A DNA stretch of 64,000 nucleotides, taken from a virus. The notes under the pieces are model-generated. The model had not been told where the DNA came from. It made no database searches and saw only the letters and a program-made list of their open reading frames with translations. Positions within the stretch are counted from its first letter, which is position 1, and each line of letters starts with the position of its first letter. Both the position numbers and the translations under genes were made by a program. Shown here piece after piece: positions 6,797-64,000 of the stretch. The DNA is taken from the UHGV virus genome UHGV-1962423; one strand, written 5' to 3'.

Positions 6797-6917
6797 TTAC
6801 TCGTAAACGCGTCTTAGACGCTGTTTTACACCTTAAGACGATTAATGGTGTTTAAAAAATAAAAGGTCGTCAGAATGCGATACAGCGCGTTTTAGAGGGT
6901 GTTTTAATTAAAATATT

Positions 6918-6990: not shown

Positions 6991-7134
6991 ATGATTTCTG
7001 TAAAACACAAAAAAGCTATCTTCGCTGTTGTTATCGCTGTTGTTCTGGGTTGCCTGTACCTGGATATCGACAAAGGCTACGACACTTGCATCGACAACGG
7101 TAATTCCGTTGCGCAGTGCACTGGTCGTGGTTAA
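6991..7134 (+). CDS. small hydrophobic protein, possible lipoprotein (47 aa)
   Basis: Not in ORF track (short). TAGGAG RBS; MISVKHKKAIFAVVIAVVLGCLYLD... has a signal/TM segment with LGC lipobox-like motif; codons look highly expressed; strong terminator follows. Confidence 0.6.
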   Translation: MISVKHKKAIFAVVIAVVLGCLYLDIDKGYDTCIDNGNSVAQCTGRG

Positions 7135-13410: not shown

Positions 13411-13535
13411 TCTATTATTTTTCGGATAGATATTATTAAAGAGAGACTGTCAGTTGGTTTAAAGGAGAGTTTATGGAAAAATTACAGTTAAAACTAAAGA
13501 TATGTACCATTATTAAAACTTAATCTGGCCCTTAC

Positions 13536-33752: not shown

Positions 33753-33758
33753 TCACAT

Positions 33759-33795
33759 ACCCCTACCTTCGGGTAGGGGGTTATTTAATTTTTTC
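33759..33795 (+). terminator. rho-independent terminator
   Basis: cccctacc-ttcg-ggtagggg followed by T-rich tract. Confidence 0.75.
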
Positions 33796-49809: not shown

Positions 49810-49811
49810 TA

Positions 49812-50315
49812 ATGGCGGTTAACTCGGGTTGGGTCGGTTCTTCGGCTAAGAGCGAAACGGGCGAACAGTGGATGAGCGCTGCGGGTGCCAAATTGGGATT
49901 GGGTAAACCTTTTATGATGAGTCAAATGGTGGGACGATCTATGGGCTGTAAAATTTCAACTGCTGCATATAGTGATTCTTTAGGTAAGAAATGGGGTGCT
50001 GTGGGATCAAGTTGGCCATTAACTCAGAAAAATCAGGGAACCATTCAAAACGCGGGTAACTGCGGGGTGGGAACTTTAGTAGGTATAGAGTTACAATTAA
50101 CGACGGTAGTTGCCAACGCAACGCCTACTCTAGCGGTCTATTTACAAGGCGGCAGGGCCTCTAACATCACTGCAAATCTAGGCGGTAACACTTGTGCGCT
50201 GACCTATCAGCAGGTTATTAATGGCCAACATTATTACTGGACCAATAACATTAGTGCCGCGTTCCAAAACGTGATGAAATCGACCGGTACACTAAGAGAT
50301 TTCAAAATTAGTTAA
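49812..50315 (+). CDS. hypothetical protein downstream of tail fibre, paralog 2 (167 aa)
   Basis: Paralog of 49213 gene; start codon directly after the G10 tract. Confidence 0.65.
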   Translation: MAVNSGWVGSSAKSETGEQWMSAAGAKLGLGKPFMMSQMVGRSMGCKISTAAYSDSLGKKWGAVGSSWPLTQKNQGTIQNAGNCGVGTLVGIELQLTTVVANATPTLAVYLQGGRASNITANLGGNTCALTYQQVINGQHYYWTNNISAAFQNVMKSTGTLRDFKIS

Positions 50316-50933: not shown

Positions 50934-53066
50934 ATGAGTCAGCCAATTGGAAAGAAGCGTATTCATGAGCTGGAAACATTTGAAGGTGAATTAGCAGGAG
51001 TCGTTCTGCTGATGTCCAAAGACGACAAAGAATATAAACTTGACGCATCTCGTTTACAAAACGATAAGCTGTATCTAGCTTGCGGTACACCTTTTCCTAA
51101 ACTAGTATTCCAAAACGATAAAACACTTTACAATATTAATCCGTACAGTGACTACGACACTTATGAAGTTTCTGCAAATAAAGGTCGGGTATCTAAAGTT
51201 ACTCGTGCCACATTTAGCGTGATGGCTGGGTCTTTATCGGTTGGCGAGAAAATACAACTTACAGTTACGCGCAATGGCGTACCATTTCAATTTGAAGTTA
51301 CCGTATCGGGACCGCGTATCACTACTCCCACTTGGACACTTCCAGTTAATGGCGGTAAATTGAGCGTAACGCCAACCTTTGAAGTAACTGACTATCAAGC
51401 CTATCCATATACCAACACCGGTAATCAACAGACCGCTGCCAGTTGGGAAATTTCCACTAGTGAAGATTTCTCAACTACAGTTTTCCAATCACTGAACGAC
51501 ACCGTCAACAAAACAACCATCAGTATCCCAGAAGGTAAGTTAGAACCAGGTCAAACTTACTACGCACGTGTTCGCTTCCATAACGCAGTAACCGAAAGTG
51601 ATTGGTCCGTTGTTCAATTCTCAGTCGGCGAAGCATTTATTCAGCGTCCTGCACTGATCGAACCCACCGTAGACATGGTGTTAAGCGCATCGAATATTAC
51701 ACTTAAAACTGATGTTTTTAAATGGGTCGGTGACGAACCTGCGGAGACCCACGTATCGACTGACTGGCAGGTTACTTACGGTAGCAACGATTTTGACGAA
51801 ATGAATAATCTCGTTAACCAATTAGAAGATGCGATTAACCTGACGTCGCTTAAATTACCGTCTGATCGGGTTTACGTTAATAACAGTTATCGTGCACGCG
51901 TGCGTTTTCGTGGTGAGAGAAGCGTCAGTGATTGGTCTGAACCTTTAACGTTCCGTGTAAGTCGCGGGAACGTACCAACAAGTGAATTCCAGTCAATTTC
52001 TGCTTCTGGATTTACAGGTAATTCAATCGGTGCTGAGTTGGCATGTACTGACGACGGTTTGCTGTTTGCTGCTACTGGCGTTGCACAGAAAGCGAAATTC
52101 TTACATATCTTTAAGAAAGACTTCCCGTCTTACAACAAAGTTGCCTCTTTAACAGCTGCTACTGAGGTTGACGCAGACAGAGATGGTCGCTGTCCGGTCA
52201 GTATGTCAGCCGACGGTAAGATTATTGTTGTCGGTGTTAGCGCATCTAAAGCTAACGAAGACCACGGCGAAGTTATCGTTTACCGTAACCCAGATAACGC
52301 TGAGTGGAGTACAATCAACGGAATAACTTTAGCGGGATTACCCACAGAAGGGTTCCATGGCCTTGCAGTAAAACTGTCAAAAGACGGCAATCGTTTGATT
52401 GTGGGTAACGGTACGAAAGTGCTGTCTATGTATTCCAATACCGATCAATTTGCTACACGTACGGCTGTGTCGCCGACACTAAGTGCCGAAGACGCCACTT
52501 GTGGTGGTATTGGTAGCATTGCAATGTCTGAAGACGGTAACGGTTTAGTGCTTGGCGAAACTAACGGAACGAAATTCCACGTACTGGCTTGGGAATCGGA
52601 TAGTTGGGTGACTAAGGCATCTATTACACCAAAAGACTTGACTGAGAAAGCAACGATTAAAGTCGCTGCTTCTTCTGACTTGTCTACGATTCTTGTTTCT
52701 GTAGTTGAGACACACAAATACTACGTTTACAAGAAAACCGGTGATAGTTGGTCTCTGTTCCAAACCTTGGATTATACCGAACTGGATTACTCCATTACTT
52801 CTACCCGTTACCCGACGGGAGACATTAATGTTGCGCCTTCCGGAAGCTGGTTAATTTTCGGTATGGTGGGTTCGTTGGGTTCTATTTTCGAATTTCGTAA
52901 TAGTACCTACCAACGACAAAATAGCATTTACGGCAGTAGTCTTAGCGATCCTGAGAATTACCACTTCTATACGTCACAAGCCATCAGTGCACAAAACGAT
53001 TTGTTCGTCGGTGCTGATGTTAAAGAAAGTGCTTCGTACTTCCCACAAATCAAAGTTTACATGTAA
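50934..53066 (+). CDS. second receptor-binding protein (tail fibre/spike) with shared N-terminal anchor (710 aa)
   Basis: N-terminus KKRIHELETFEGELAGVVLLMSKDDKEYKL parallels KKIRLHDLRPYTGDIGEGVLLFSKDEKDYKL of the 1438-aa fibre; central Ig/FN3-like stretches; C-terminal repeated ..DG..IVVG.. units suggestive of a beta-propeller (inference). Confidence 0.6.
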   Translation: MSQPIGKKRIHELETFEGELAGVVLLMSKDDKEYKLDASRLQNDKLYLACGTPFPKLVFQNDKTLYNINPYSDYDTYEVSANKGRVSKVTRATFSVMAGSLSVGEKIQLTVTRNGVPFQFEVTVSGPRITTPTWTLPVNGGKLSVTPTFEVTDYQAYPYTNTGNQQTAASWEISTSEDFSTTVFQSLNDTVNKTTISIPEGKLEPGQTYYARVRFHNAVTESDWSVVQFSVGEAFIQRPALIEPTVDMVLSASNITLKTDVFKWVGDEPAETHVSTDWQVTYGSNDFDEMNNLVNQLEDAINLTSLKLPSDRVYVNNSYRARVRFRGERSVSDWSEPLTFRVSRGNVPTSEFQSISASGFTGNSIGAELACTDDGLLFAATGVAQKAKFLHIFKKDFPSYNKVASLTAATEVDADRDGRCPVSMSADGKIIVVGVSASKANEDHGEVIVYRNPDNAEWSTINGITLAGLPTEGFHGLAVKLSKDGNRLIVGNGTKVLSMYSNTDQFATRTAVSPTLSAEDATCGGIGSIAMSEDGNGLVLGETNGTKFHVLAWESDSWVTKASITPKDLTEKATIKVAASSDLSTILVSVVETHKYYVYKKTGDSWSLFQTLDYTELDYSITSTRYPTGDINVAPSGSWLIFGMVGSLGSIFEFRNSTYQRQNSIYGSSLSDPENYHFYTSQAISAQNDLFVGADVKESASYFPQIKVYM

Positions 53067-53075
53067 GGAAACGCG

Positions 53076-53636
53076 ATGAAATATGCTTATTTAAAAGACG
53101 GTAATGTGATCGACTGGAATGTTACCGAAGACATGATTGCTTTGCGTGGCCACACTGTAGATATTTATACGCCTGTAGTAGAATCTGCTAAACCGGTTGT
53201 TAACCCTGATTGTTATATCGTGTTCGAAACAACACCAAAACTGGTAAAAGGCAAGCTGGTTCAACAGTGGGTGACTGAAGTGCTGCCTAAAGAAACGGTA
53301 GTACGTAACCAGAAGGCACGTTTAGCGGAAATTCGTTATGCGAAAGAAACTGCCGGGATTACGTTTAAAGACCAAACTATTCCTACGACACGTGATGTAC
53401 GTTATCAGTTAATTCAGTCTAAACACGTTGATTCTACGCAACCTATTAACTGGAAGCTAGGCGATACGTGGCTAAGTCTTACTCAGGAAGACATTGATGC
53501 GCTGCTGGTTGCAATCGCAACTTATGTTGAGAAATGCTACGCGGCAGAACGCACAGTCTCCGAGAAAATCACTAAGGTGAAAGCACCTGAAAAACTGGAT
53601 GTAGAAACCTTATTTAACGACGCTTTCGCAGCGTAA
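53076..53636 (+). CDS. hypothetical protein, possible fibre assembly or accessory factor (186 aa)
   Basis: Immediately downstream of the second receptor-binding gene; role inferred from position only. Confidence 0.6.
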   Translation: MKYAYLKDGNVIDWNVTEDMIALRGHTVDIYTPVVESAKPVVNPDCYIVFETTPKLVKGKLVQQWVTEVLPKETVVRNQKARLAEIRYAKETAGITFKDQTIPTTRDVRYQLIQSKHVDSTQPINWKLGDTWLSLTQEDIDALLVAIATYVEKCYAAERTVSEKITKVKAPEKLDVETLFNDAFAA

Positions 53637-53640
53637 CACG

Positions 53641-53683
53641 GTAGCAGGGGCTAAGCCCCTGCTACCTTTTTCTTTATTTTTTC
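53641..53683 (+). terminator. rho-independent terminator
   Basis: gtagcagggg-ctaa-gcccctgctac followed by ctttttctttatttttt. Confidence 0.8.
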
Positions 53684-53728
53684 TCAGATATATATTACCT
53701 AGAGGAGAGTGAAATTTACATTCACTCC
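53683..53728 (+). promoter_or_regulatory. conserved promoter-like box CTCAGATATATATTACCTAGAGGAGAG plus hairpin
   Basis: Box plus hairpin gagtgaa-atttaca-ttcactc; about 30 nt upstream of ATG 53757. Confidence 0.6.
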
Positions 53729-53756
53729 ATTAGTTATAGCCGAAAAGGAGGATTAG

Positions 53757-54608
53757 ATGTATCACCCGTATTATCTCCCGCACATTCTAGCAAATAGAGA
53801 CCCTGGTTATTACTACGAACAAACAAAAGGATCTTTTAATCGGCTCTACATTCGCGAATTTAATACTGATGAAATGACCGATGACCAGTATCTGGAGTAT
53901 CTAAAAGACCTCTACGGTTTTTCAAAATCGAATAAAGGTGGCTTTGGACGTTCCGCAGTTATTAGAGTTGGTGAATATCGTCATTTGGCTAAGCCCGTTA
54001 CGTATCCTATTGTTACACGCGCTTATACATCGGATAGGCAATATATTGCTGAACTAAAATTTCCTTTACGGATAGACGGGCCACAAATTAGCGCTATAGA
54101 AGTAGAAATTCAACCAATTGCTGAAGACTATATTGAAGTCTACTTCAAGAAAGCTAAAGAGGTACTCGAGGAGGGTTTAAGCTACTATGAAGAAGGAACG
54201 ATTTGTCTTCTTTCGTTACTCACGAAGGCTTATGTCACAGCAAATTTCCGTATCTCCGACTCCAGTGACTATAACACATTTACCCCCTCTAAGGCAAAAC
54301 CTGTTTATTGGGACGATCAGTTAGTCGACAGACAACGCTGGCTTACTATCTTAGATAAAGTAAAATTCGAACCCCCTAAACACACTGAAGACAACTTTAT
54401 TCTATCCCACAACTTCGAACCGATCTATATTCCGACGCATTTTGAGCAAGCCTTACGTCATCGATTGAAGTATGTGTTGGAATTACGGTACGGGAAGATA
54501 AATGGGCTAACTTGTTCTGGTGAATTGAGTGAAGAAGAACGCGAGAAGATAAAAATCGTGTTTGATAAGTTGGTTGAAGATTACATTAAGAAGGAAGGAC
54601 AGTTATGA
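53757..54608 (+). CDS. hypothetical protein (283 aa)
   Basis: AAAGGAGG RBS; first gene after promoter box. Confidence 0.8.
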   Translation: MYHPYYLPHILANRDPGYYYEQTKGSFNRLYIREFNTDEMTDDQYLEYLKDLYGFSKSNKGGFGRSAVIRVGEYRHLAKPVTYPIVTRAYTSDRQYIAELKFPLRIDGPQISAIEVEIQPIAEDYIEVYFKKAKEVLEEGLSYYEEGTICLLSLLTKAYVTANFRISDSSDYNTFTPSKAKPVYWDDQLVDRQRWLTILDKVKFEPPKHTEDNFILSHNFEPIYIPTHFEQALRHRLKYVLELRYGKINGLTCSGELSEEEREKIKIVFDKLVEDYIKKEGQL

Positions 54609-55048
54609 AACCAAATACTACTAACGGCATTATGTTACTTTGTGATTCTGAAACGTTAGCAAACCGTATTCGTGGTTTGATGCAAGTACGTTGGCAGCAA
54701 AAGGTTCGCGTGGATTATGCTGCTCCGTTTGTTCACGTTAGTTGGTTGCCAGAAGCTAACGATTTCAAAGAAAATATCACCACGAAAAGAATTAAAAATT
54801 GGTTAATGGCAATCATTAACAAACAGATTACCGTTATCAATTTCCAGTTGTTCGGTAGTAAAGAGGAACATGATACCTTAAAACGCTGTTTAAGGGGATT
54901 GGATCTTGCCTTTTCTGTTCGTGGAAATTGTTACACAGCGTTCTTCATCGGTTCTCTCGAGTTATTTCAGGGAACATTAAACATTCAACTAAAAGAAGAT
55001 TACGGGATTGTAAATAAGATTGATTTCGAATTCCCAGCAATGATTTAA
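54605..55048 (+). CDS. hypothetical protein (147 aa)
   Basis: ATGA coupling. Confidence 0.7.
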   Translation: MKPNTTNGIMLLCDSETLANRIRGLMQVRWQQKVRVDYAAPFVHVSWLPEANDFKENITTKRIKNWLMAIINKQITVINFQLFGSKEEHDTLKRCLRGLDLAFSVRGNCYTAFFIGSLELFQGTLNIQLKEDYGIVNKIDFEFPAMI

Positions 55049-55059
55049 GGAGTAGTAGC

Positions 55060-55887
55060 ATGTTACAGTTCGAACTCACCGAAGAAAGAAAAGTCGTTAA
55101 CGAGTTTAAAATTTCCCCTATCCCTACCGAAAAACAAATTAAAGAAATCGCTGAGTTACAAAATAAGTACAGCTTTTACTATAAAGTTAAATCGGAAACA
55201 TTTAATATTTTCTGGACCGAAGACGAGGTCAATTTCCCTAACAAACTCATTAATGCGGCTCTAGATATTTTAGTACGGCCTGTTGAGACGTCTAAAGATC
55301 CAGAACAAACCACTTGTAGGTTGAAAGTCGAGCGCCCAGCGAAGGATGTTGCTTACTTCACAGACGAGATTCTACTTACCTCCAAACAGGCAGGTAAAAT
55401 TGGATCAATATTATACCTTTTTTACAGCGACAAATTCACTTATCTGGTTGAAAACAACGTACTTAAAGTGAACTATGAATATGCTAGTTATCGTGTTCTT
55501 TTAAATCAACTATTGGAAGACATAGAGGGAGAAAATGTTCTGGTATTTACAGTTGAATATATTAGCAAAGCCGATGCTGGCGAGTTTATCCGCCGCGTGA
55601 AAGATGAACTCGAAGACCGTGAATTTATGATTTATCAAAGCAAATATCTTGAAGGTAACTTGAATCTCTTGATCAGAAACGAATCATGGATTCTTAAAGT
55701 TTTGGAATCCCATGCGCAGAAAATTAAGAGAGGCAGTGATTGTTTTAAACAAATTTTCGAGAAATACGAAACGGAAATTAGACAACGGCTTGCATCCCAC
55801 TGGGCCGTAGATCAGGATGTGGAATACGCCCAGCTATTTGATAAGTTTTATAACGAGATGAGGAGGGTTTGGGATCTTAAACAATAG
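55060..55887 (+). CDS. hypothetical protein (275 aa)
   Basis: AGGAG RBS. Confidence 0.75.
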   Translation: MLQFELTEERKVVNEFKISPIPTEKQIKEIAELQNKYSFYYKVKSETFNIFWTEDEVNFPNKLINAALDILVRPVETSKDPEQTTCRLKVERPAKDVAYFTDEILLTSKQAGKIGSILYLFYSDKFTYLVENNVLKVNYEYASYRVLLNQLLEDIEGENVLVFTVEYISKADAGEFIRRVKDELEDREFMIYQSKYLEGNLNLLIRNESWILKVLESHAQKIKRGSDCFKQIFEKYETEIRQRLASHWAVDQDVEYAQLFDKFYNEMRRVWDLKQ

Positions 55888-55967
55888 GCCGAAGATCATT
55901 TCCGTAAGTATTAAACAGGGGGATTTACGTCCCCTCAACACAGAGCAAACCCCTAAAGGAGCATTAA

Positions 55968-56483
55968 ATGTCAGTAAATATTAACATGAATCTTTATACT
56001 AAACGTGAACGTCAGATTCTGGCGAATCAACCCGGTGTTACGACTATTGACGGTAAACCCATTGACCGTTTAAAAGTTATCGTTGCGCGAAATTGCCATG
56101 AACGCGATTGGGACATTACCTACTTCCGTTGTTGTTCGGTCGCAAACGCGCTTACCCAACTCTCCAACTACCACCCAGGGCCGTTATTAAAAGACTGGGT
56201 TTGGTTAGTACCCAAAACACCTTCGGCGATTGAATACCCCTCAGGGTTGGTTTATATCCGTCCTGTTGCTTATCCAGAACGTCTGAAAGAGTATCTTGAA
56301 GTTATCTGGAACCGTCCTCGTAAAGAGCTGGTGACGATCATTAATTTACTGCAACAGATCGATATCCCCGGAGTTTTGAATTTGAAACTCACGTCTCGCG
56401 ATATTAACCAGGCTTACTGGGAACTAGAGTGGACAGAACCGAAATTCGAAAACACTAACCGTATTTTCTTGCACCGGGGGTAA
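55968..56483 (+). CDS. hypothetical protein (171 aa)
   Basis: AAAGGAG RBS. Confidence 0.75.
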   Translation: MSVNINMNLYTKRERQILANQPGVTTIDGKPIDRLKVIVARNCHERDWDITYFRCCSVANALTQLSNYHPGPLLKDWVWLVPKTPSAIEYPSGLVYIRPVAYPERLKEYLEVIWNRPRKELVTIINLLQQIDIPGVLNLKLTSRDINQAYWELEWTEPKFENTNRIFLHRG

Positions 56484-56485
56484 AA

Positions 56486-56767
56486 ATGTTAAATTGGTTG
56501 TTGGGTTTAATTAACTCACGTCAACAGGAGCTTTATAAAGAAAACACACGATTACGGCAGGAACTTAATAACAATCGTCAGACCAAACGACAATTAATTC
56601 GGATGGTAAAACAACAGGCGCGTTGTATACGGGATATCGATTATCAGTATCACCGTCTGAATACCTTAGACCCAACAACAAAAGCTTTAGGTAGTACGAT
56701 TGGACACGCACGTAAAGTCAGTCACGATGCGTTAGTTCGAATCGATACAATAGAAGAGAAACTGTGA
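56486..56767 (+). CDS. hypothetical basic coiled-coil protein (93 aa)
   Basis: Followed by hairpin ctccctcgg-tttt-ccgagggag. Confidence 0.65.
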   Translation: MLNWLLGLINSRQQELYKENTRLRQELNNNRQTKRQLIRMVKQQARCIRDIDYQYHRLNTLDPTTKALGSTIGHARKVSHDALVRIDTIEEKL

Positions 56768-56810
56768 TTAGCACTCCCTCGGTTTTCCCGAGGGAGATAA
56801 GGTGTTTTGC

Positions 56811-57200
56811 ATGAAGCGTTTATCTTACTTAAAAAGACGTTTGTTACTAAAGGTCCAATTATTCATCAATGGGAAAGTTAAAAACTGGCTATGTGGTGAA
56901 AGGGTACAACGTATCGTCAGTGAGGGCGACTGGTATACGGAAATCGTGGTTTCCCCAAATGGCGAGCTTATAAACGTTACCATTCGTGACGTTTTGGTTA
57001 AGATTGGCAGGGAAGGTGGTTTGCTGTTTGAATCGGAAACTACAAAAGTCGTTGCTAAACAATTGAAAGAAGGTCGGATTATATTCAACGTTGCTGCCCA
57101 AAAATACTACGACAATTTATTCGAATGTCAACGAGCAATAGGCAGAATGACTCGTGAGATGCGAAGAATGCACATCACGGAGATCACTATAGGAGTTTAA
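56811..57200 (+). CDS. hypothetical protein (129 aa)
   Basis: Track start GTG 56802; ATG 56811 with AAGGTG 6 nt upstream. Confidence 0.65.
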   Translation: MKRLSYLKRRLLLKVQLFINGKVKNWLCGERVQRIVSEGDWYTEIVVSPNGELINVTIRDVLVKIGREGGLLFESETTKVVAKQLKEGRIIFNVAAQKYYDNLFECQRAIGRMTREMRRMHITEITIGV

Positions 57201-57202
57201 CG

Positions 57203-57511
57203 ATGGAAAATAAAATCGCAAACACAACGGCACCTGAGAACATCGTCAACTATATTCTCAGTGGCGGGTTATTAGAAGACAACAAAGAAACGTGCGATAA
57301 ACTCGTTTCACAACTACTGCCTATTCGTTCAGAATACTGCGAAATCGTTATCTTAGGTTCTGAGTATTGCGTACGTTCTTACTGTCGTCGTTTCGAAGCC
57401 TTACGCGTTCCACGTACGTTAGGTGGCGTGATACTCTTAGTCTCTAACTTTCACAGTGCACACGTTCGTGTTGCAACCTGGATTGCAAACGGTGGCGATA
57501 ATGGTTTTTAA
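57203..57511 (+). CDS. hypothetical protein (102 aa)
   Basis: GGAG RBS; ORF starts 2 nt after upstream stop. Confidence 0.7.
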   Translation: MENKIANTTAPENIVNYILSGGLLEDNKETCDKLVSQLLPIRSEYCEIVILGSEYCVRSYCRRFEALRVPRTLGGVILLVSNFHSAHVRVATWIANGGDNGF

Positions 57512-57612
57512 TTTATTTAAACGTAAGGAATGTCCTGTCTGCGAAACCTGCGAAAAAAATTATCTCTACGCAAGATGAGCTAATCAAACAGCAAGATAAG
57601 TTGCTCACTGAA

Positions 57613-57789
57613 ATGGGCGAACTCTATTTTAAACTTTGTGCTATTACCGAACTGGTTAGTGAAGGTGTGTTAACGAAAGACGGTGGATTAGAGTTGGTCA
57701 AGAAGGCAACGATTCACTGTCGTCCTGAAGTAGAAAAATATAAACTTGAAGTGAAACGTGAAATGTGGGAGATTATTAATGAAGCGTGA
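57613..57789 (+). CDS. hypothetical small protein (58 aa)
   Basis: Frame open from 57502; first ATG at 57613, weak RBS; start uncertain (TTG 57601 in track). Confidence 0.4.
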   Translation: MGELYFKLCAITELVSEGVLTKDGGLELVKKATIHCRPEVEKYKLEVKREMWEIINEA

Positions 57790-58060
57790 AACAGTTGTAT
57801 TTCGTAGTAATGGTGATGTGGTTTTGTATCGTGGTAAGAAACGTATTCGTACGTTAGAATACCGTGAAGCAAAACGTTTTGTTGAAGAGTGTGCATGGTT
57901 AATGCATTACGAAGGGAACTATCGTGCTATCTTAGAAGCTCCGCGTTTAGAACGTGCGGTTGCACAGATGGCAATAGGTAATCCTAAGAACTGTTACCTG
58001 GCCCGTAAGCCAAAATACTTACAGCGTCTTTCGTTAGGCAGCTTTATTGCTGGATTTTAA
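57779..58060 (+). CDS. hypothetical protein (93 aa)
   Basis: ATG 57779 with GGGAG 8 nt upstream; track start GTG 57758. Confidence 0.6.
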   Translation: MKRETVVFRSNGDVVLYRGKKRIRTLEYREAKRFVEECAWLMHYEGNYRAILEAPRLERAVAQMAIGNPKNCYLARKPKYLQRLSLGSFIAGF

Positions 58061-58070
58061 TAAAAATAAT

Positions 58071-58112
58071 TTCAGATATATATTACCTAGGTGAGAGTTC
58101 AGTTACTCTCAC
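58071..58112 (+). promoter_or_regulatory. conserved promoter-like box TTCAGATATATATTACCTAGGTGAGAG plus hairpin
   Basis: Hairpin gtgagagt-tcagtt-actctcac; about 30 nt upstream of ATG 58143. Confidence 0.6.
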
Positions 58113-58142
58113 TTAACCAAAACCATTTTAGGAGCATATACC

Positions 58143-58637
58143 ATGAACTTCACTAGACTTGACTACACTAACGAATTAGTCGACAAAGAAAAATACAAAT
58201 TCACCGTTGGCTTGGGTTACGGATTACTGGACGTAGAAAAAGACGTCCTGCACAAAGAATTCCGTGAACAGTTCGGTGCTCTGTTCTGCGCAGGTTTCCG
58301 CAGAAACACTATCGATATCGGTTATAGCGCAACAGCGTATACCGACGAAGAAATGTTTAAGCTGGTAACACAGATTATCGGTACGCGTGGAGCCAAACGA
58401 CTCAACTATTCCAACGAACTTGTTTCGAAAGAACATTACAAGTTCACCGTTAGACTACCTGTTCCCCTCACAGAAGAGGATAAGAACATCCTCTATAAAG
58501 CCCTTCAAACCGAATTCGGTAAAACGCTCAAAGTAGGGTTCCGTAATCGTAGTATCGATATCGGAATTAGTGTAGACGTATGCAGTGACGATGACCTTTA
58601 CGAACTAGTTTCGGAAGTTATCGGAAAACATCTTTAA
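58143..58637 (+). CDS. hypothetical protein made of two tandem ~80-aa homologous domains (164 aa)
   Basis: TAGGAG RBS; halves align (LDYTNELVDKEKYKFTVGL...GFRRNTIDIGYS vs LNYSNELVSKEHYKFTVRL...GFRNRSIDIGIS). Confidence 0.8.
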   Translation: MNFTRLDYTNELVDKEKYKFTVGLGYGLLDVEKDVLHKEFREQFGALFCAGFRRNTIDIGYSATAYTDEEMFKLVTQIIGTRGAKRLNYSNELVSKEHYKFTVRLPVPLTEEDKNILYKALQTEFGKTLKVGFRNRSIDIGISVDVCSDDDLYELVSEVIGKHL

Positions 58638-58680
58638 CGTAAATTAACACTTCGACTTGTAAATCTAAAAGGAAAATAAA

Positions 58681-59472
58681 ATGGCTACTTTAACTATTGC
58701 TAATACTCTTACTCCTCGTAAAATGAAACGTCTTACGACTTTTATCTCTCGCTGCACACCTAGCGTCAAATTGGAAACGACCTCTGACAAAATCACGTTT
58801 TGGACTTATAGTGACGTAGAACTTGAAACTGTGAAAGGGTTTGTTAATGGGCTAGTTGAAAATACCGCATCATCACTCGTTATTAGCTTCACTAGCGAAA
58901 ATAGCGAGATGAACGAAGCAACAATTTCGGATGCAATCTATTACGCGACTGGCAATAATTTTGATACCGCCGACAGACTTAATCTTTCTAATAACCTTTG
59001 TAAAATCGACGACAAGACTTACATCCTGTATTTTAATAGTCCGTTCCCACAAATCGGAGGTTTTAAACATTATCTTTCAATGAAACCTATCTTGGGTATA
59101 GAAGTTTTCTCTACGGATCTTGAAGACAATGTACAGCTAAACCGTATTCGTTATCGTGGTAAACGTCCAACCGAAACAGATTCTGAATACGGTGCTTGTG
59201 CTGAATGTATTCTGGTTCATAAAGATCGCTTCGCTTACTACAACCAAGACGATATTGAACGTCTTGTAGAAGCCGTCAATTTATACACTCGCGATTTTGC
59301 ATTCCGATTGGTTTATAACACTTATCCGAATGGTGTAACGGCTTTCTATATCCCTCCCTACCTTTTCGACAAGGTTTATTGTATTCTGTCTAAAGAACTG
59401 GAAAAAATTAAACCGGTTTTCGTGGGCGAAGACGCTATGGCTTATATCAGGAGTGGTGCTAATGTCCTCTAA
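58681..59472 (+). CDS. hypothetical protein (263 aa)
   Basis: AAAGGAAAA RBS. Confidence 0.75.
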   Translation: MATLTIANTLTPRKMKRLTTFISRCTPSVKLETTSDKITFWTYSDVELETVKGFVNGLVENTASSLVISFTSENSEMNEATISDAIYYATGNNFDTADRLNLSNNLCKIDDKTYILYFNSPFPQIGGFKHYLSMKPILGIEVFSTDLEDNVQLNRIRYRGKRPTETDSEYGACAECILVHKDRFAYYNQDDIERLVEAVNLYTRDFAFRLVYNTYPNGVTAFYIPPYLFDKVYCILSKELEKIKPVFVGEDAMAYIRSGANVL

Positions 59473-59893
59473 ACTTAAAGATGAATTGCGTGATTACATT
59501 CGTAAATACCCAGCCAGTATTCCGGTACTGGCTTCACTCTCTCTGTCGGGTATGGACCTTAATACCTTAACGGTAGAAAAATTCCACGAAGTGGTAAAAT
59601 CATCGTACCAAATTGTTACCGATATGTCAGTGCGGAAACGTGCTGACTACCCAGACGGTGATTTCGGTACGGAGATGTTCACAGACTACGCAGTTGCGTA
59701 TCTGATGGGACGTCACTTTATCGATAAACTCAATACGGCTGTAGAAGGAGAAACAGTTTCGGAAATTGTCAATGCTTGGCAACAACGTACTGTGAGTGAT
59801 GCTTACTGTCGTCAAGCCTTAAAGAAAATGTCGGCAGTAGCGCTAACCAATGACCAACGTGCTTTAGAGTTCCTTAAGCACAATTACGAATAA
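59462..59893 (+). CDS. hypothetical protein, paralog of 61177..61608 (143 aa)
   Basis: ATG 59462 with AGGAG 9 nt upstream (track start GTG 59453); LKDELRDYIRKYP vs LKDDIRNYIRNNP in the paralog. Confidence 0.7.
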   Translation: MSSKLKDELRDYIRKYPASIPVLASLSLSGMDLNTLTVEKFHEVVKSSYQIVTDMSVRKRADYPDGDFGTEMFTDYAVAYLMGRHFIDKLNTAVEGETVSEIVNAWQQRTVSDAYCRQALKKMSAVALTNDQRALEFLKHNYE

Positions 59894-59914
59894 TTTACCA
59901 AAAGGAAAAGTACC

Positions 59915-61099
59915 ATGTTTAATATTGAAATTACCCCGCTCGTTAAAACTAAAATCCGTCCGGTTCCCGAAGCACAATTACTCGTACAGCTTTATCATGT
60001 ATTCCTAGATAAAGGTGTGGATTTCCGTGTAGAACAGGTCAACGATGAAAGCATCGTATTCTACTGGACTCACAGCAATGATTACCTTTACACTATCGTG
60101 AAAGAAATCGGTGAGTTACTCAACCCAGTAGCCACGAACGCCTGGGTAGAATCGACCGAGACTGAACAACCGAAAGTCGAAGAACAGCAACAGTCTATAA
60201 ACAAGAGTCACGACCCGTACGTTTGCCGATATGATGTCGAAACGATCGAGAAAATTAAAGAAGTGTTAGAGATCTTCTATCCTGATGACTTATACATCAG
60301 TCGGCAATACGACATGTTAGCTGTCAGTATGAAGGAATTCGATCCTAAGATCATGAAAGATATTCGTAGCATCATTGCTTCGATTGTTTACGACACCGTT
60401 CGACTTATTTCGTTTCAAGGTATCGGAAAAGGTGAAGCGGACGAATTCATGCGTATGGCTGTTCACGAACACAAGGAGAAAATTCGCCAGTCTAATTACG
60501 CTAACGATACTTTAACTGTGCTTGTTGATAATGACCCTGTTGTTATTAACCAGCTGAACATCCGTATGCGTCAGTTAACAAAGAAAATTTTTCTTAAAGA
60601 GGAGCAATCGCTTGAAGAGTCCAAAGTGTCGAAAGTCTTTACTTACACTGGCCCAGATGCCAAAGCGATTGACGATACTTTGACAGCTTTCTATTCTAGC
60701 AAAGTGGAGACTAAACTCGAGGGCGAAGAACTCACTATTAAATGGAAATGGTGGGACATTGCTCTTGAAGAAGAAATTCATAGTCTCATTAAAGAGATTG
60801 TTGACGACCGTCTACGTCTTCTAACAATCACTACTATTGGGAAAGAAGATGCCGATACGTTTATGCGTGGTATCACTCGTTGGTTCCCTGAGAAAGTCCG
60901 TCAGTGGACTTACACAAACGATACACTTACCATTCTGCTCAATTATGAACCCGGTATTATTGGAAAGTTAAAAACTCATCTGCGTGACTTGTGGTCAGTT
61001 CGTTTTCTTAATAATAACGAGCACTTACTCGACGCGTACTTTAGAGAAATATCTTCTGGCGTAGGTTGCAACTGCCCTAACTGTCAAAAACGTCGTTAA
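59915..61099 (+). CDS. hypothetical protein with internal duplication and C-terminal Cys cluster (394 aa)
   Basis: Repeated ADEFMRMAVHEHKEKIRQSNYANDTLTVLV / ADTFMRGITRWFPEKVRQWTYTNDTLTILL units; C-terminal GVGCNCPNCQKRR. Confidence 0.8.
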   Translation: MFNIEITPLVKTKIRPVPEAQLLVQLYHVFLDKGVDFRVEQVNDESIVFYWTHSNDYLYTIVKEIGELLNPVATNAWVESTETEQPKVEEQQQSINKSHDPYVCRYDVETIEKIKEVLEIFYPDDLYISRQYDMLAVSMKEFDPKIMKDIRSIIASIVYDTVRLISFQGIGKGEADEFMRMAVHEHKEKIRQSNYANDTLTVLVDNDPVVINQLNIRMRQLTKKIFLKEEQSLEESKVSKVFTYTGPDAKAIDDTLTAFYSSKVETKLEGEELTIKWKWWDIALEEEIHSLIKEIVDDRLRLLTITTIGKEDADTFMRGITRWFPEKVRQWTYTNDTLTILLNYEPGIIGKLKTHLRDLWSVRFLNNNEHLLDAYFREISSGVGCNCPNCQKRR

Positions 61100-61176
61100 T
61101 TAACGACTTTCTAAATTCATCTAGAGGGGTGGTTTACCACCCCTCTATTATTGTATTTACCTAAAGGAGTATTAAA

Positions 61177-61608
61177 ATGTTTTTCGTATTAAAAGATGAT
61201 ATCCGTAACTACATTCGTAACAACCCTATTGCTCTGGGCGTTTTAGCAGGTTTCTGTCGTCCAAATACTGATTTCGATTTAGTTAAGTTAGAAGAATATC
61301 AGGAAATTGTGAATACTAACTACATGCACATCTGTAGCTGGGGTAAACGTCCTCGCGAAGAGTACCCTGTAGGTGAGTTAGGTGACACTATGCATCGTGA
61401 CCAGAATCTGATGCACGAATTCGTTGAATACACACTGGAAAATCTTAACTATCCGCTTCTGGTCGACACTGTACCAGAAATGGTTGACGAATGGTTAAGT
61501 CGTGTTTACAATGACCCTACTGCCAGCACTCTACTGAGTCAGATGTCGCAAACTTCTCGTGATATCGACACCCGGACCCTGATGTACCTAGCACACAACG
61601 TTCGCTAA
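61177..61608 (+). CDS. hypothetical protein, paralog of 59462..59893 (143 aa)
   Basis: AAAGGAG RBS; same length and N-terminal motif as the paralog. Confidence 0.75.
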   Translation: MFFVLKDDIRNYIRNNPIALGVLAGFCRPNTDFDLVKLEEYQEIVNTNYMHICSWGKRPREEYPVGELGDTMHRDQNLMHEFVEYTLENLNYPLLVDTVPEMVDEWLSRVYNDPTASTLLSQMSQTSRDIDTRTLMYLAHNVR

Positions 61609-61614
61609 CCTTAC

Positions 61615-61680
61615 TCCGCTATAGGCTTCGGTCTATAGCGGAATTAATTTTCTTTCCCTTTTCTTTTTTGTTATTTTGAC
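61615..61680 (+). terminator. rho-independent terminator
   Basis: ccgctatag-gcttcggt-ctatagcgg followed by T-rich tract. Confidence 0.7.
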
Positions 61681-61774
61681 ACCACTTTACTTACACCCTA
61701 CCCGACTATTCCTATGCTGGCTGAGGGATGTAAAACGACCTCTTAAACCTTTTTACTTACTGTGAGTTAACGCG

Positions 61775-62623
61775 ATGTCTCTTACGTCAAAACAGAAACT
61801 GCTAAAACTCATCAACACTGAAAACAATATTAGTCCACCGTTGACTTTCAGTGATGTTGATATCGGAGAACCTACTGGTACTGGGGTTGATACCCAGGTG
61901 GTTCTGACCTCTAAACTCAAAGGCGATGAGTCTACTACTTTAACAGTGACTTACCACCGTCGTAATTTACCTGACTACTTAACCGGTGAGTTGGTTTTCG
62001 GTAACGACAGTGTGGTAACCGCATCAGATTTGCTTAATGCGATCAACGCAAAATACAACCTAAATATTTTACCCTCGGATATCGTTGACGCAAAAGTTGA
62101 AGGTGAAACCCATCAGCTTACCGCTAACGAGAAATCTTACGAGTGGTGCGGTGTAGTAACACTTACGCTGCGTGATCCTATTGACCTGACTGAACTGTTA
62201 CCAGTTACTCAATTAGAGAATCTGGTAGAGTATCCGTCCACTAAGAAAGGTAACGCTGCGGTTTATTCTCACCCGATCGATTTCACCGCAGAAAAAGATT
62301 ACCTTGACCCGATTACTATCAACGACACCGTAGACTTGGTCGAGTTAGCCGCTAAACTGGATGGCGTCGTTGACGAGAAATGGGTAAGTGTGCCTAAGAA
62401 CGCGACTAACAACCTGTACGGTGCGAAGGTTATTTACGATGGCCCAACCGCAGGTTACGAAGGCGCAAATACGAAGTTCACTCGTGTGTTGGTGCTGACG
62501 CTCAGCCCGCTGTGTTCTAACCTGACAGGTAATCTGTTAATCCACTTTAACGGTACCGATCGTCCGAAGTCGAAGATTGAATTAGCACAGACTAATCCGG
62601 TCTTACCGGGATTCTTAGATTAA
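61775..62623 (+). CDS. hypothetical protein (282 aa)
   Basis: Long ORF; paralogous to the following truncated gene. Confidence 0.75.
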   Translation: MSLTSKQKLLKLINTENNISPPLTFSDVDIGEPTGTGVDTQVVLTSKLKGDESTTLTVTYHRRNLPDYLTGELVFGNDSVVTASDLLNAINAKYNLNILPSDIVDAKVEGETHQLTANEKSYEWCGVVTLTLRDPIDLTELLPVTQLENLVEYPSTKKGNAAVYSHPIDFTAEKDYLDPITINDTVDLVELAAKLDGVVDEKWVSVPKNATNNLYGAKVIYDGPTAGYEGANTKFTRVLVLTLSPLCSNLTGNLLIHFNGTDRPKSKIELAQTNPVLPGFLD

Positions 62624-62636
62624 GAGGATTACAGTA

Positions 62637-63161
62637 ATGACCAATCAAGAAACTATCTTCGACCTTATTAAAAAGGCTAACCCAGACGCTGAGTTCGACA
62701 CCACCAAAGTCACACTGGGTGACCCGGTCGTAACCACCGGTACGTACAATACCGAAATCACAGTTGCGTCAATTAAGAATCTCGGTTATACTAACGAACA
62801 AACGTTCCAGTATAACCGGATCGACGCAGGTTTGTATTTCCTGAACGTATTACCGAAACTGTTGGTGGAATCGGCAACAACGACCGCTGACTTACTGCCT
62901 GTCATTAACGAGCAGTACAGCCTAACCCTTACAGAAGACGATGTATGGGTAGAGCAGGTTGGTGAGTTACCGTTAGACGGAAGCGCAATCGAACACGGTA
63001 TTTTCTTCCGTCCTGAGTGTCTGACCTGGGTTGGCGGTTTTACAGTGCGAGTTGCGCGTAAACCGGCTGGCGCTACGCCACCCGAGACATGGAGGAGCCC
63101 CAGACCGCCGAATCCTGGCGCACCATGCCCCAGAAGGCGGCCGAGTGGTGGAAAAAGGTAA
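62637..63161 (+). CDS. paralog of 61775 gene, disrupted at the composition junction near 63070
   Basis: First ~145 codons are phage-like and align to the upstream paralog; the remaining frame runs into high-GC DNA with implausible Pro/Arg-rich translation. Confidence 0.5.
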   Translation: MTNQETIFDLIKKANPDAEFDTTKVTLGDPVVTTGTYNTEITVASIKNLGYTNEQTFQYNRIDAGLYFLNVLPKLLVESATTTADLLPVINEQYSLTLTEDDVWVEQVGELPLDGSAIEHGIFFRPECLTWVGGFTVRVARKPAGATPPETWRSPRPPNPGAPCPRRRPSGGKR

Positions 63162-63229
63162 ACGCAGGTGAAATTGAGAACCCGTTTATTTTCGAGCACA
63201 GCAACGAGCCGGAGGACTACGAGTTTTAA
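63089..63229 (+). CDS. small hypothetical ORF in high-GC segment (46 aa)
   Basis: Not in track. ATG 63089 to TAA 63227-63229; followed by a 10-bp-stem hairpin (63241-63273). Weak evidence. Confidence 0.25.
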   Translation: MEEPQTAESWRTMPQKAAEWWKKVNAGEIENPFIFEHSNEPEDYEF

Positions 63230-63304
63230 TTCCAAAGCGCGGAAGAAGGGGCGGCCGGTACGTCCCTTCTTCCTGTGCATTGCTTATAAAGGAGTGTCAC
63301 AGCT

Positions 63305-64000
63305 ATGGCAAAGACCATCATCACCGCCGCGCTGACCGGCGCGGTCACCCCCGCGGGCTACAAGATCCCCGAGACGCCCCAGCAGATCGCCAACGAGGCT
63401 TACGACGCCTGGAAGCTGGGCGCCGCCGTGGTACACCTGCACATGCGGGCCGACGACGGCCTGGGTGCCATGGACAAGGAGAAATTCCGGGAGACCATCC
63501 GGCTTATCCGCAGCCACCAGGACTGTGATGTCATTATCAACTGCACCTCCTCCGGCGCTTCTGCCGAGCATCCCGCCACGGATGAGGAGCGGATGGCCCA
63601 TCACCGGGAGCTGGAGGGCATCGAGATGGGTTCCTATGATGCCGGTACCTTCAACTGGATGCCCGGCGGCGTGTTCGTCAACTCCCCCCAGTTCCTCGAG
63701 AAGCTGGGCGATCTTTACATGGAGAAGGGCATCAAGCCGGAGCTGGAGATCTTTGACGCTGGCATGCTGGGCGTGGCCAGCTACTTCGTGAAGAAGGGCC
63801 ACCTGTCCACCCCCTGCCACTACCAGTTCTGCCTGGGCGTGCTGGGCGGCATGCCCGCCACGGTGGAGAACCTGCTCTACCTGGTGCAGCACATCCCCGC
63901 CGGTTCCACCTGGTCGGCCTTCGGCGTGGGCAAGGGCCCCCTGCCCATCCTGTTCGCCTCCCTGGCCCTGGGCGGCCACATCCGCGTGGGCATGGAGGAC
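63305..64000 (+). CDS. kce: 3-keto-5-aminohexanoate cleavage enzyme-like protein (BKACE/DUF849), 3'-truncated at window edge
   Basis: Not in track because no stop in window. AAAGGAG RBS then MAKTIITAALTGAVTP..., HLHMRADDG, GGHIRVGMED; GC-rich third codon positions; frame open to the end of the window. Confidence 0.7.
   Translation, partial: MAKTIITAALTGAVTPAGYKIPETPQQIANEAYDAWKLGAAVVHLHMRADDGLGAMDKEKFRETIRLIRSHQDCDVIINCTSSGASAEHPATDEERMAHHRELEGIEMGSYDAGTFNWMPGGVFVNSPQFLEKLGDLYMEKGIKPELEIFDAGMLGVASYFVKKGHLSTPCHYQFCLGVLGGMPATVENLLYLVQHIPAGSTWSAFGVGKGPLPILFASLALGGHIRVGMED

Follow-up and report, generated by a model that had tools for sequence, protein, structure and literature searches.

What does a 164-residue protein built from two similar halves, its gene standing first behind a conserved promoter box, do for the jumbo phage that carries it? 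We address this question for the gene at 58143-58637 of the window, by which we mean the whole 64,000-nucleotide stretch of the virus genome UHGV-1962423 analysed here. An earlier note on this DNA had described the gene as two tandem homologous domains of ~80 residues behind a conserved box, and had proposed that it is probably strongly expressed at a defined time. Some of what bears on the question was already known, as the gene is deposited as a hypothetical protein and both the promoter type and the phage clade have been described; the recognition of the internal duplication, the matching of a single-domain allele, and the lineage-specific insertion behind a conserved early promoter are new.

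An internally duplicated gene in a Seoulvirus-like jumbo phage

By its gene content, the source phage is a Seoulvirus-like (SPN3US-related), phiKZ-like jumbo phage of the Chimalliviridae type. Among the proteins encoded in the window are a major head protein of 761 aa (phrog_3231), a DnaB-like helicase and several large proteins of the virion; one virion protein is 46% identical to its counterpart in SPN3US (Seoulvirus). No close DNA-level relative was found among 50,697 phage records; the phage is present at 90% identity as the circular 222,441-bp 'plasmid unnamed1' of a complete Enterobacter ludwigii genome from a gull (NZ_CP134650.1), and also in hundreds of Salmonella assemblies. A preprint describes 299 non-temperate jumbo phages as 'Seoul-like'; Salmonella is the host for 238, most were found inside bacterial assemblies, and all encode chimallin (10.1101/2024.12.31.630880). 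The source phage appears to belong with the 'persistent' Seoul-like phages of that preprint. Elsewhere in the window, ~150 bp on the + strand (~49811-49964) match, with 85-89% DNA identity, tail-fibre adhesin genes found in Stx-converting and other lambdoid phages of E. coli and Shigella, which suggests that a receptor-binding module has passed between phages that are not related; the counterpart adhesin genes of relatives L002-L005 encode Gp38-type adhesin domains.

The features of the locus discussed below are as follows:

58070-58086, + strand: early-promoter box TTTCAGATATATATTAC, phiKZ-type, presumed virion-RNA-polymerase promoter
58088-58115, + strand: 11-bp hairpin (UAGGUGAGAGU / ACUCUCACUUA) right after the box
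58130-58134, + strand: Shine-Dalgarno sequence AGGAG, 8 nt 5' of the ATG, the same in relatives
58143-58637, + strand: coding sequence of 164 aa (ATG start, 164 codons plus stop), an open reading frame read from the sequence
61122-61147, + strand: terminator-like hairpin from a terminator scan, with 11 pairs (7 G-C) and a T-rich tail

The open reading frame is a real gene under purifying selection. It is intact in 21 clusters of full-length homologues with 84-97% identity, which derive from ~224-kb phage contigs in Salmonella enterica assemblies and gut metagenomes as well as from IMG/VR viral genomes; the homologue in NZ_CP134650.1 (L009) is annotated as hypothetical protein WP_311383436.1. 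Against its 90%-identical counterpart in relative L002, the gene has 34.5 synonymous and 17.5 non-synonymous differences (dN/dS = 0.11). The encoded protein is soluble and mildly acidic (pI 5.7 overall, 5.0 for the N domain), with zero hydrophobic segments.

Tandem homology of the two halves, as the earlier note had claimed, is borne out by self-alignment. Residues 5-80 pair with residues 86-161 without a gap and with 34 of 76 positions identical (45%); the local alignment (BLOSUM62, gaps -11/-1) scores 182, against a mean of 25.0, a standard deviation of 4.6 and a maximum of 50 for 2000 shuffles of the second half (z = 34). The peptide strings quoted in support of that claim are both found in the protein. 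Furthermore, a half-domain profile built from both halves of 22 family members matches twice within the reading frame (153 and 148 bits), and against the six-frame translation of the window it detects no paralogue beyond 58143-58637. DNA identity between the two halves of the gene is 56%, with saturation at synonymous sites (pS 0.76). The duplication is therefore old, gene conversion has not homogenised it, and selection on the protein has kept both copies. Two motifs are common to both halves, NELVxKExYKFTV in the first hairpin and GFRxxxIDIG in the second. Identity between the halves reaches 63% in the predicted strands as compared with 35% in helices and 33% in loops, and variable positions among the 22 homologues are correspondingly distributed (19% in strands, 41% in helices, 49% in loops), pointing to the beta-sheet as the constrained part of the protein.

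Family searches place the protein in no described family. Pfam (at E <= 0.1), PHROGs and NCBIfam gave no match with the full 164 residues; Pfam searches at E <= 10 with each half, with the single-domain allele described below (cluster P0024) and with the repeats of a possible remote relative (cluster P0025) gave nothing consistent; and the best hit of a profile search against PDB sequences (E = 0.15) is not meaningful. Similarly, tblastn against the 50,697 phage records returned zero matches at E <= 0.01, and word-indexed searches with the 164-aa protein, with the half-domain and P0025 profile and with P0024 returned only the 84-97% family or the query itself.

A presumed early promoter and a variable cassette behind it

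The earlier note had placed a promoter box before the gene at 58071; the box is indeed there, although it begins one base earlier, at 58070. It lies ~55 nt upstream of the gene in every relative examined, and the gene stands first behind it, as had been described, in every contig of the phage clade that we read. Box sequence is invariant in relatives L002-L005, L007 and L009. A megablast search with 56000-62000 finds the box as the sole match to SPN3US-like, Erwinia and Proteus jumbo phages (up to 100% over 36 nt).

Published early-promoter consensus sequences are TATATTAC in phiKZ and TTTYARRYAKATATTAT... in OBP and N1M2 (PMC7058600 Table 2). The box at 58070-58086 matches the OBP/N1M2 consensus TTTYARRYAKATATTAY exactly and contains the phiKZ motif; taken together with the bases that follow it, TTTCAGATATATATTAC(C)TAGGTG fits the published sequences of the phiKZ-type early promoters of phiKZ, 201phi2-1, OBP and N1M2. 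Like those promoters, it occurs in several copies, at the heads of clusters of small genes and often right after a terminator. Besides the copy at 58070, the window has strong boxes at 6917, 33794 and 53682, all on the + strand, and weaker ones at 13420 and 10725. The 16-mer has 4 matches in the window at <=3 mismatches where 0.36-0.71 would be expected by chance, and each of the four strong boxes lies 45-75 nt before the start of an open reading frame. G+C-rich terminator hairpins at 33757-33790 and 53640-53666 lie directly 5' of two of these boxes, forming terminator-promoter tandems. The first gene behind the box at 6917 (6991-7134, + strand) encodes a protein of 47 aa whose N-terminal stretch is hydrophobic (MISVKHKKAIFAVVIAVVLGC...NGNSVAQCTGRG), and a similar 47-aa gene, gp200, stands behind an almost identical box in SPN3US (L010 1086-1229).

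In phiKZ, AT-rich early promoters of this type are served by the injected virion RNA polymerase (PMC10914365, PMC13282480). Standing first behind a phiKZ-type early promoter, the 164-aa gene is most likely transcribed by an injected enzyme of this kind; the proposal of expression at a defined time thus gains support through the motif match to the phiKZ-type early consensus, from which we infer, on good grounds, that the gene is an early one.

The hairpin right after the box folds at -16 kcal/mol (z = -3.8; 0 of 200 shuffles fold as well), the GTG at its 5' side belongs to the published promoter consensus, and in relatives the stem is conserved while the loop differs. Sequence behind each of the remaining three boxes can fold into a hairpin too, but with less stability (z = +0.2, -1.0 and -1.1) and not beyond shuffled controls. 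Rfam gave no match in 53000-62000, this hairpin included.

Downstream of the gene, the first strong terminator-like hairpin is that at 61122-61147, which probably ends the early unit that begins at the box; with none before it, the unit probably comprises the genes at 58143-58637, 58681-59472, 59453-59893 and 59915-61099. The last of these, on the + strand, encodes a 394-aa protein with no family match (Pfam, PHROGs) and with a tandem duplication of its own, of ~132 residues (score 194, shuffles 31 +/- 4.9, z = 33). The genes at 59453-59893 and 61177-61608 (both + strand) are paralogous, with a local score of 201 over ~138 residues, and both belong to phrog_8484. Further on, G+C content jumps from ~0.40-0.42 over the preceding 8 kb to 0.54 in 62001-64000, the start of a block of DUF7941 virion-protein paralogues.

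Comparison with SPN3US shows which genes behind the promoter are particular to this clade. In SPN3US, the box (L001 7590-7606) directly precedes gp131, a phrog_8484 gene, and the same arrangement is seen in three other SPN3US-like genomes, and in Huxley-like and other relatives; in the window the phrog_8484 homologue (59453-59893) comes third in the unit. The 164-aa gene was found in SPN3US-like phages neither by tblastn of the phage records, nor by the exhaustive profile search described below, nor at the syntenic SPN3US locus. With the box directly before the phrog_8484 gene in SPN3US, the 164-aa gene and its downstream neighbour are clade-specific additions, and by this comparison the 164-aa gene is a clade-specific accessory outside the gene set conserved in Seoulvirus-like phages. 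The downstream neighbour (58681-59472) itself varies among near-identical relatives: it encodes 157 aa in L002-L004, but 263 or 258 aa in L005, in L007 and in the window. The first two positions behind the promoter thus form a variable cassette.

One- and two-domain alleles and the predicted fold

An exhaustive HMMER search of 1.84 billion representative proteins with the half-domain profile yielded three clusters, of which one is the family itself and the others are P0024 and P0025. The gene of P0024 is complete, encodes a single domain of 88 aa, and is present in contigs L007 and L008 exactly at the locus of the 164-aa gene, with the identical box, hairpin and Shine-Dalgarno sequence upstream and with a terminator-like hairpin and then the next gene behind it. 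Its identity to the N half is 58-62%, that to the C half 40-42%, and its end (..AKRAI) aligns with the inter-domain linker of the longer protein (..AKRLN). From well upstream into the start of the gene, L007 is 96.5% identical to L002, and the gene itself is ~66% identical at the DNA level; P0024 looks like a diverged allele and neither like a recent deletion nor like an artefact of assembly. As an allele it is rare, known from one cluster and from two sequencing runs whose accession numbers are adjacent and which are perhaps not independent.

In the pattern of identities, the N half is closer to P0024 than either is to the C half, from which both are about equally distant. On the assumption of a clock, this pattern and the linker residues kept in P0024 make a two-domain ancestor that lost its second domain the likelier origin; a later duplication followed by faster evolution of the C copy could also have produced it. 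Either way, a presumably functional one-domain protein suggests that the domain works as a dimer, the 164-aa form then being two such units fused into a pseudo-dimer. The pseudo-dimer proposed for this gene thus draws support from the self-alignment, from the equal predicted secondary structure of the halves and from the 88-aa allele.

P0025, a 494-aa protein of five tandem ~100-aa repeats on a bacterial MAG contig (NVTB01000002.1 of GCA_002401425.1; L006 8001-9485), reached E = 1.4e-5 in the library but an hhalign probability of just 50%, and we treat it as only a possible remote relative. A link through PRS2_N (PF23900) was also set aside, as this is a weak Pfam match of P0025 that is absent from the phage protein. 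The P0025 gene lies in a same-strand run of large unannotated genes, several of which also have weak PRS2_N (PF23900) matches, 3' of a small HTH protein and a Fic protein.

AlphaFold2 predicts the same order of elements in both halves, strand-strand-helix-strand-strand-helix, in agreement with a pseudo-dimer:

58143-58385, + strand: domain N (aa 1-81), with predicted strands 8-14 and 17-23, helix 30-44, strands 47-52 and 56-62, helix 68-82
58386-58634, + strand: domain C (aa 82-164), with predicted strands 88-95 and 98-104, helix 111-125, strands 130-134 and 137-143, helix 149-163

Each half is accordingly modelled as a beta-beta-alpha-beta-beta-alpha sandwich. The underlying alignments are shallow, consisting of 22 near-identical sequences for the full-length protein (pLDDT 76, pTM 0.50) and of 12 half-domain sequences for the single domain (pLDDT 80, pTM 0.65), and at a pTM of 0.50 the inter-domain orientation of the full-length model is not reliable.

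Foldseek comparisons against the PDB gave no match at E <= 1e-3 for the full model (best E = 2.3e-3, TM 0.30) and none of significance for the single domain (best E = 0.02, TM at most 0.57); against BFVD there was one unnamed match (3.4e-4, TM 0.31) along with uncharacterised jumbo-phage proteins. The top full-length neighbours (TM 0.25-0.35) are tandem-ACT aspartate kinase subunits, tandem BMC shell proteins, the tandem HMA domains of CopA, and I-AniI, and the top single-domain neighbours (E 0.02-0.14, TMq 0.41-0.57) are type III secretion chaperones, RPB11, PCD/DCoH and the DHHA1-type domains of RecJ and AlaRS. As far as the models go, the resemblance to all of these is one of architecture and element order only.

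Three groups of neighbours come closest. The DCoH topology is strand-strand-helix-strand-strand-helix, as in PCD/DCoH dimers, and this per-domain order is shared by the predicted phage domains with PCD/DCoH and RPB11, all without sequence similarity. PCD/DCoH and RPB11 proteins act as dimers, whereas the phage protein holds both units in one chain. Superposition is weak, with TMq 0.44-0.45 and E = 0.10-0.14 for the PCD neighbours 2ebb and 2v6u and TMq 0.48-0.49 for the RPB11 neighbours 8hil_K and 7eu0_K (TM <0.5 and E-values 0.05-0.14 across the DCoH-like group); the RPB3-11 proteins of ASFV and asfa-like viruses are also among the weak neighbours. Conserved histidines are catalytic in PCD. 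We do not assign the protein to PCD, given that it has no Pterin_4a match in Pfam and that H37, H98 and H163 are conserved neither between the halves nor in P0024, which makes pterin-dehydratase chemistry unlikely.

Among the single-domain neighbours, class I type III secretion chaperones score best (CesT, SigE, SycH and STM2138/SrcA; E = 0.02-0.04, TMq 0.41-0.50). As dimers, these small and acidic alpha+beta proteins engage in stoichiometric binding of other proteins, which is the mode that we propose below for the phage protein. They measure ~110-140 aa, compared with ~80 aa for the four-stranded phage domain, which has no secretion-system context; with no CesT-family match in Pfam and Foldseek scores that are not significant, membership in this group was rejected.

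The third group consists of fused pseudo-dimers (tandem-ACT proteins, the BMC proteins CsoS1D and CcmP, the HMA domains of CopA, and I-AniI), which like the phage protein carry two homologous alpha+beta domains in one chain and have relatives that act as homodimers; with TM 0.25-0.35 and rmsd 11-17 A, they share neither sequence similarity nor family motifs with it. LAGLIDADG enzymes exist in homodimeric and monomeric forms, a parallel to the one- and two-domain alleles of the phage gene. Membership was nonetheless rejected here too. For ACT, there is no profile match in Pfam (protein E <= 0.1, halves E <= 10), the modelled order differs from strand-helix-strand-strand-helix-strand, and the neighbour 2zho combines E = 2.3e-3 with TM 0.30 and rmsd 16.9 A. 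For LAGLIDADG, in which a helix with an acidic catalytic residue is expected before each beta-beta-alpha-beta-beta-alpha core, just 7 residues precede strand 1 of domain N, Pfam gives no match, and I-AniI superposes at TM 0.28.

Candidate roles in infection

The anatomy of the gene is much more secure than its function. We propose that it encodes a small soluble covalent pseudo-dimer of two fused ~80-residue alpha+beta sandwich domains. The injected virion RNA polymerase would most likely transcribe the gene within minutes of the start of infection, and the protein would act stoichiometrically by binding a host or phage macromolecule, most probably a protein. Binding would take place through the conserved beta-sheet surfaces of both domains, the target would perhaps itself be symmetric, and the product of the rare single-domain allele would bind likewise after homodimerising; the protein would thereby serve as a host-takeover or counter-defence factor. 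This reading draws together the early promoter, the accessory status, the allelic variability, the soluble and mildly acidic pseudo-dimer and the conserved sheet; what we infer within it is that the gene acts early, that a dimer does the work and that it does so by binding. The weak fold neighbours are in line with it, since type III secretion chaperones, RPB11, PCD/DCoH and tandem ACT are all binding modules of alpha+beta type, dimeric or in tandem. Conservation of the sheet could alternatively reflect mere fold stability or domain-domain packing in place of a partner-binding surface. Taken as a whole chain, from early accessory pseudo-dimer to stoichiometric binder in host takeover or counter-defence, the proposal is a tentative one to which we give slightly less than an even chance.

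Several other explanations deserve consideration. It is possible, though unlikely, that the pseudo-dimer binds nucleic acid instead, its two four-stranded sheets forming a TBP-, DCoH- or LAGLIDADG-like saddle on DNA or RNA, with a role, for example, in regulating the early-to-middle switch or in acting on host nucleic acid. The core of a LAGLIDADG domain runs strand-strand-helix-strand-strand-helix, so that the predicted element order is that of this core as well as of PCD/DCoH dimers; I-AniI, viral LAGLIDADG endonucleases, PCD and RPB11 are among the weak Foldseek neighbours, and conserved K15, K19, T21 and R53 lie in the hairpins. Yet the TM-scores of these neighbours are 0.28-0.50, the net charge is slightly negative (in keeping with the low pI of the whole and of its N domain), Pfam at E <= 0.1 gives no LAGLIDADG, HTH or other nucleic-acid-binding match, and the short stretch before the first strand of domain N leaves no helix there. 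A small-molecule binder of ACT-like design, with a ligand at the domain interface and a role as sensor or sponge for a host metabolite or an immune signalling nucleotide, strikes us as distinctly unlikely. In its favour, the tandem-ACT structures 2zho, 2dt9 and 3ab4 rank first when the full model is compared with the PDB (E = 2.3e-3 to 1e-2, with probabilities of up to 0.97), and the element order may be read as a circular permutation of the ferredoxin/ACT order, with conserved glycine loops (G51-F52-R53 and D58-x-G60) that could shape a pocket; however, a TM of 0.30 at an rmsd of ~17 A means that the tandem architecture alone is shared, the order as it stands is unlike that of ACT, Pfam finds no ACT domain, and no ligand-binding motif was identified.

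Position in the genome raises the further alternative that the protein is not directed at the host, but is a structural or assembly component of the virion, of the ejected proteins, or of the phage nucleus or its import machinery. The gene does lie between tail-fibre genes and the block of virion structural paralogues, and similar promoter motifs have been reported upstream of some structural genes of N1M2 (PMC7058600). We nevertheless consider this very unlikely, since the gene is absent from SPN3US-like phages, with which the virion and nucleus machinery is shared, and since one- and two-domain alleles in otherwise 96.5%-identical genomes suit an accessory gene and not a core one. Finally, the reading frame might be non-functional, or the box might be a host sigma-70 promoter or part of a terminator, in which case the timing deduced from it would be wrong. 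A weak sigma-70-like match (9/12) does overlap the box, at 58057-58084; against this stand the exact fit of the box to a phage-specific consensus and the abundance of such matches in the region, 27 versus 19.8 +/- 5.3 in shuffles, which is not in excess, while the low dN/dS, the good Shine-Dalgarno sequence and an intact frame in more than 20 clusters, one of which has 419 member sequences, speak for a functional gene. We regard this last explanation as extremely improbable.

Returning to the preferred reading of an early accessory binder, a bolder version of it would have the protein represent an undescribed fold family and a clade-specific early effector of the 'persistent' Seoul-like phages in Salmonella and Enterobacter isolates. 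This is a long shot; if true, the protein could, for example, work against host defences in a new way or help to tune the carrier state, and the existence of both one- and two-domain alleles would be the mark of an arms race against a host target that is itself symmetric (dimeric). On present evidence, the gene is one small uncharacterised phage protein among many. Early accessory genes of nucleus-forming jumbo phages, most of them unannotated, are nonetheless a source of host-takeover and counter-defence discoveries, and this one is a lineage-specific insertion that immediately follows a promoter whose conservation extends across genera. It also offers a compact case of evolution from a dimer to a fused pseudo-dimer, with both states at one locus in nearly identical genomes. 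Given that the Seoul-like clade is reported to persist in hundreds of Salmonella isolates (10.1101/2024.12.31.630880), clade-specific early genes such as this one may be reasonable candidates for factors that shape the lifestyle of these phages.
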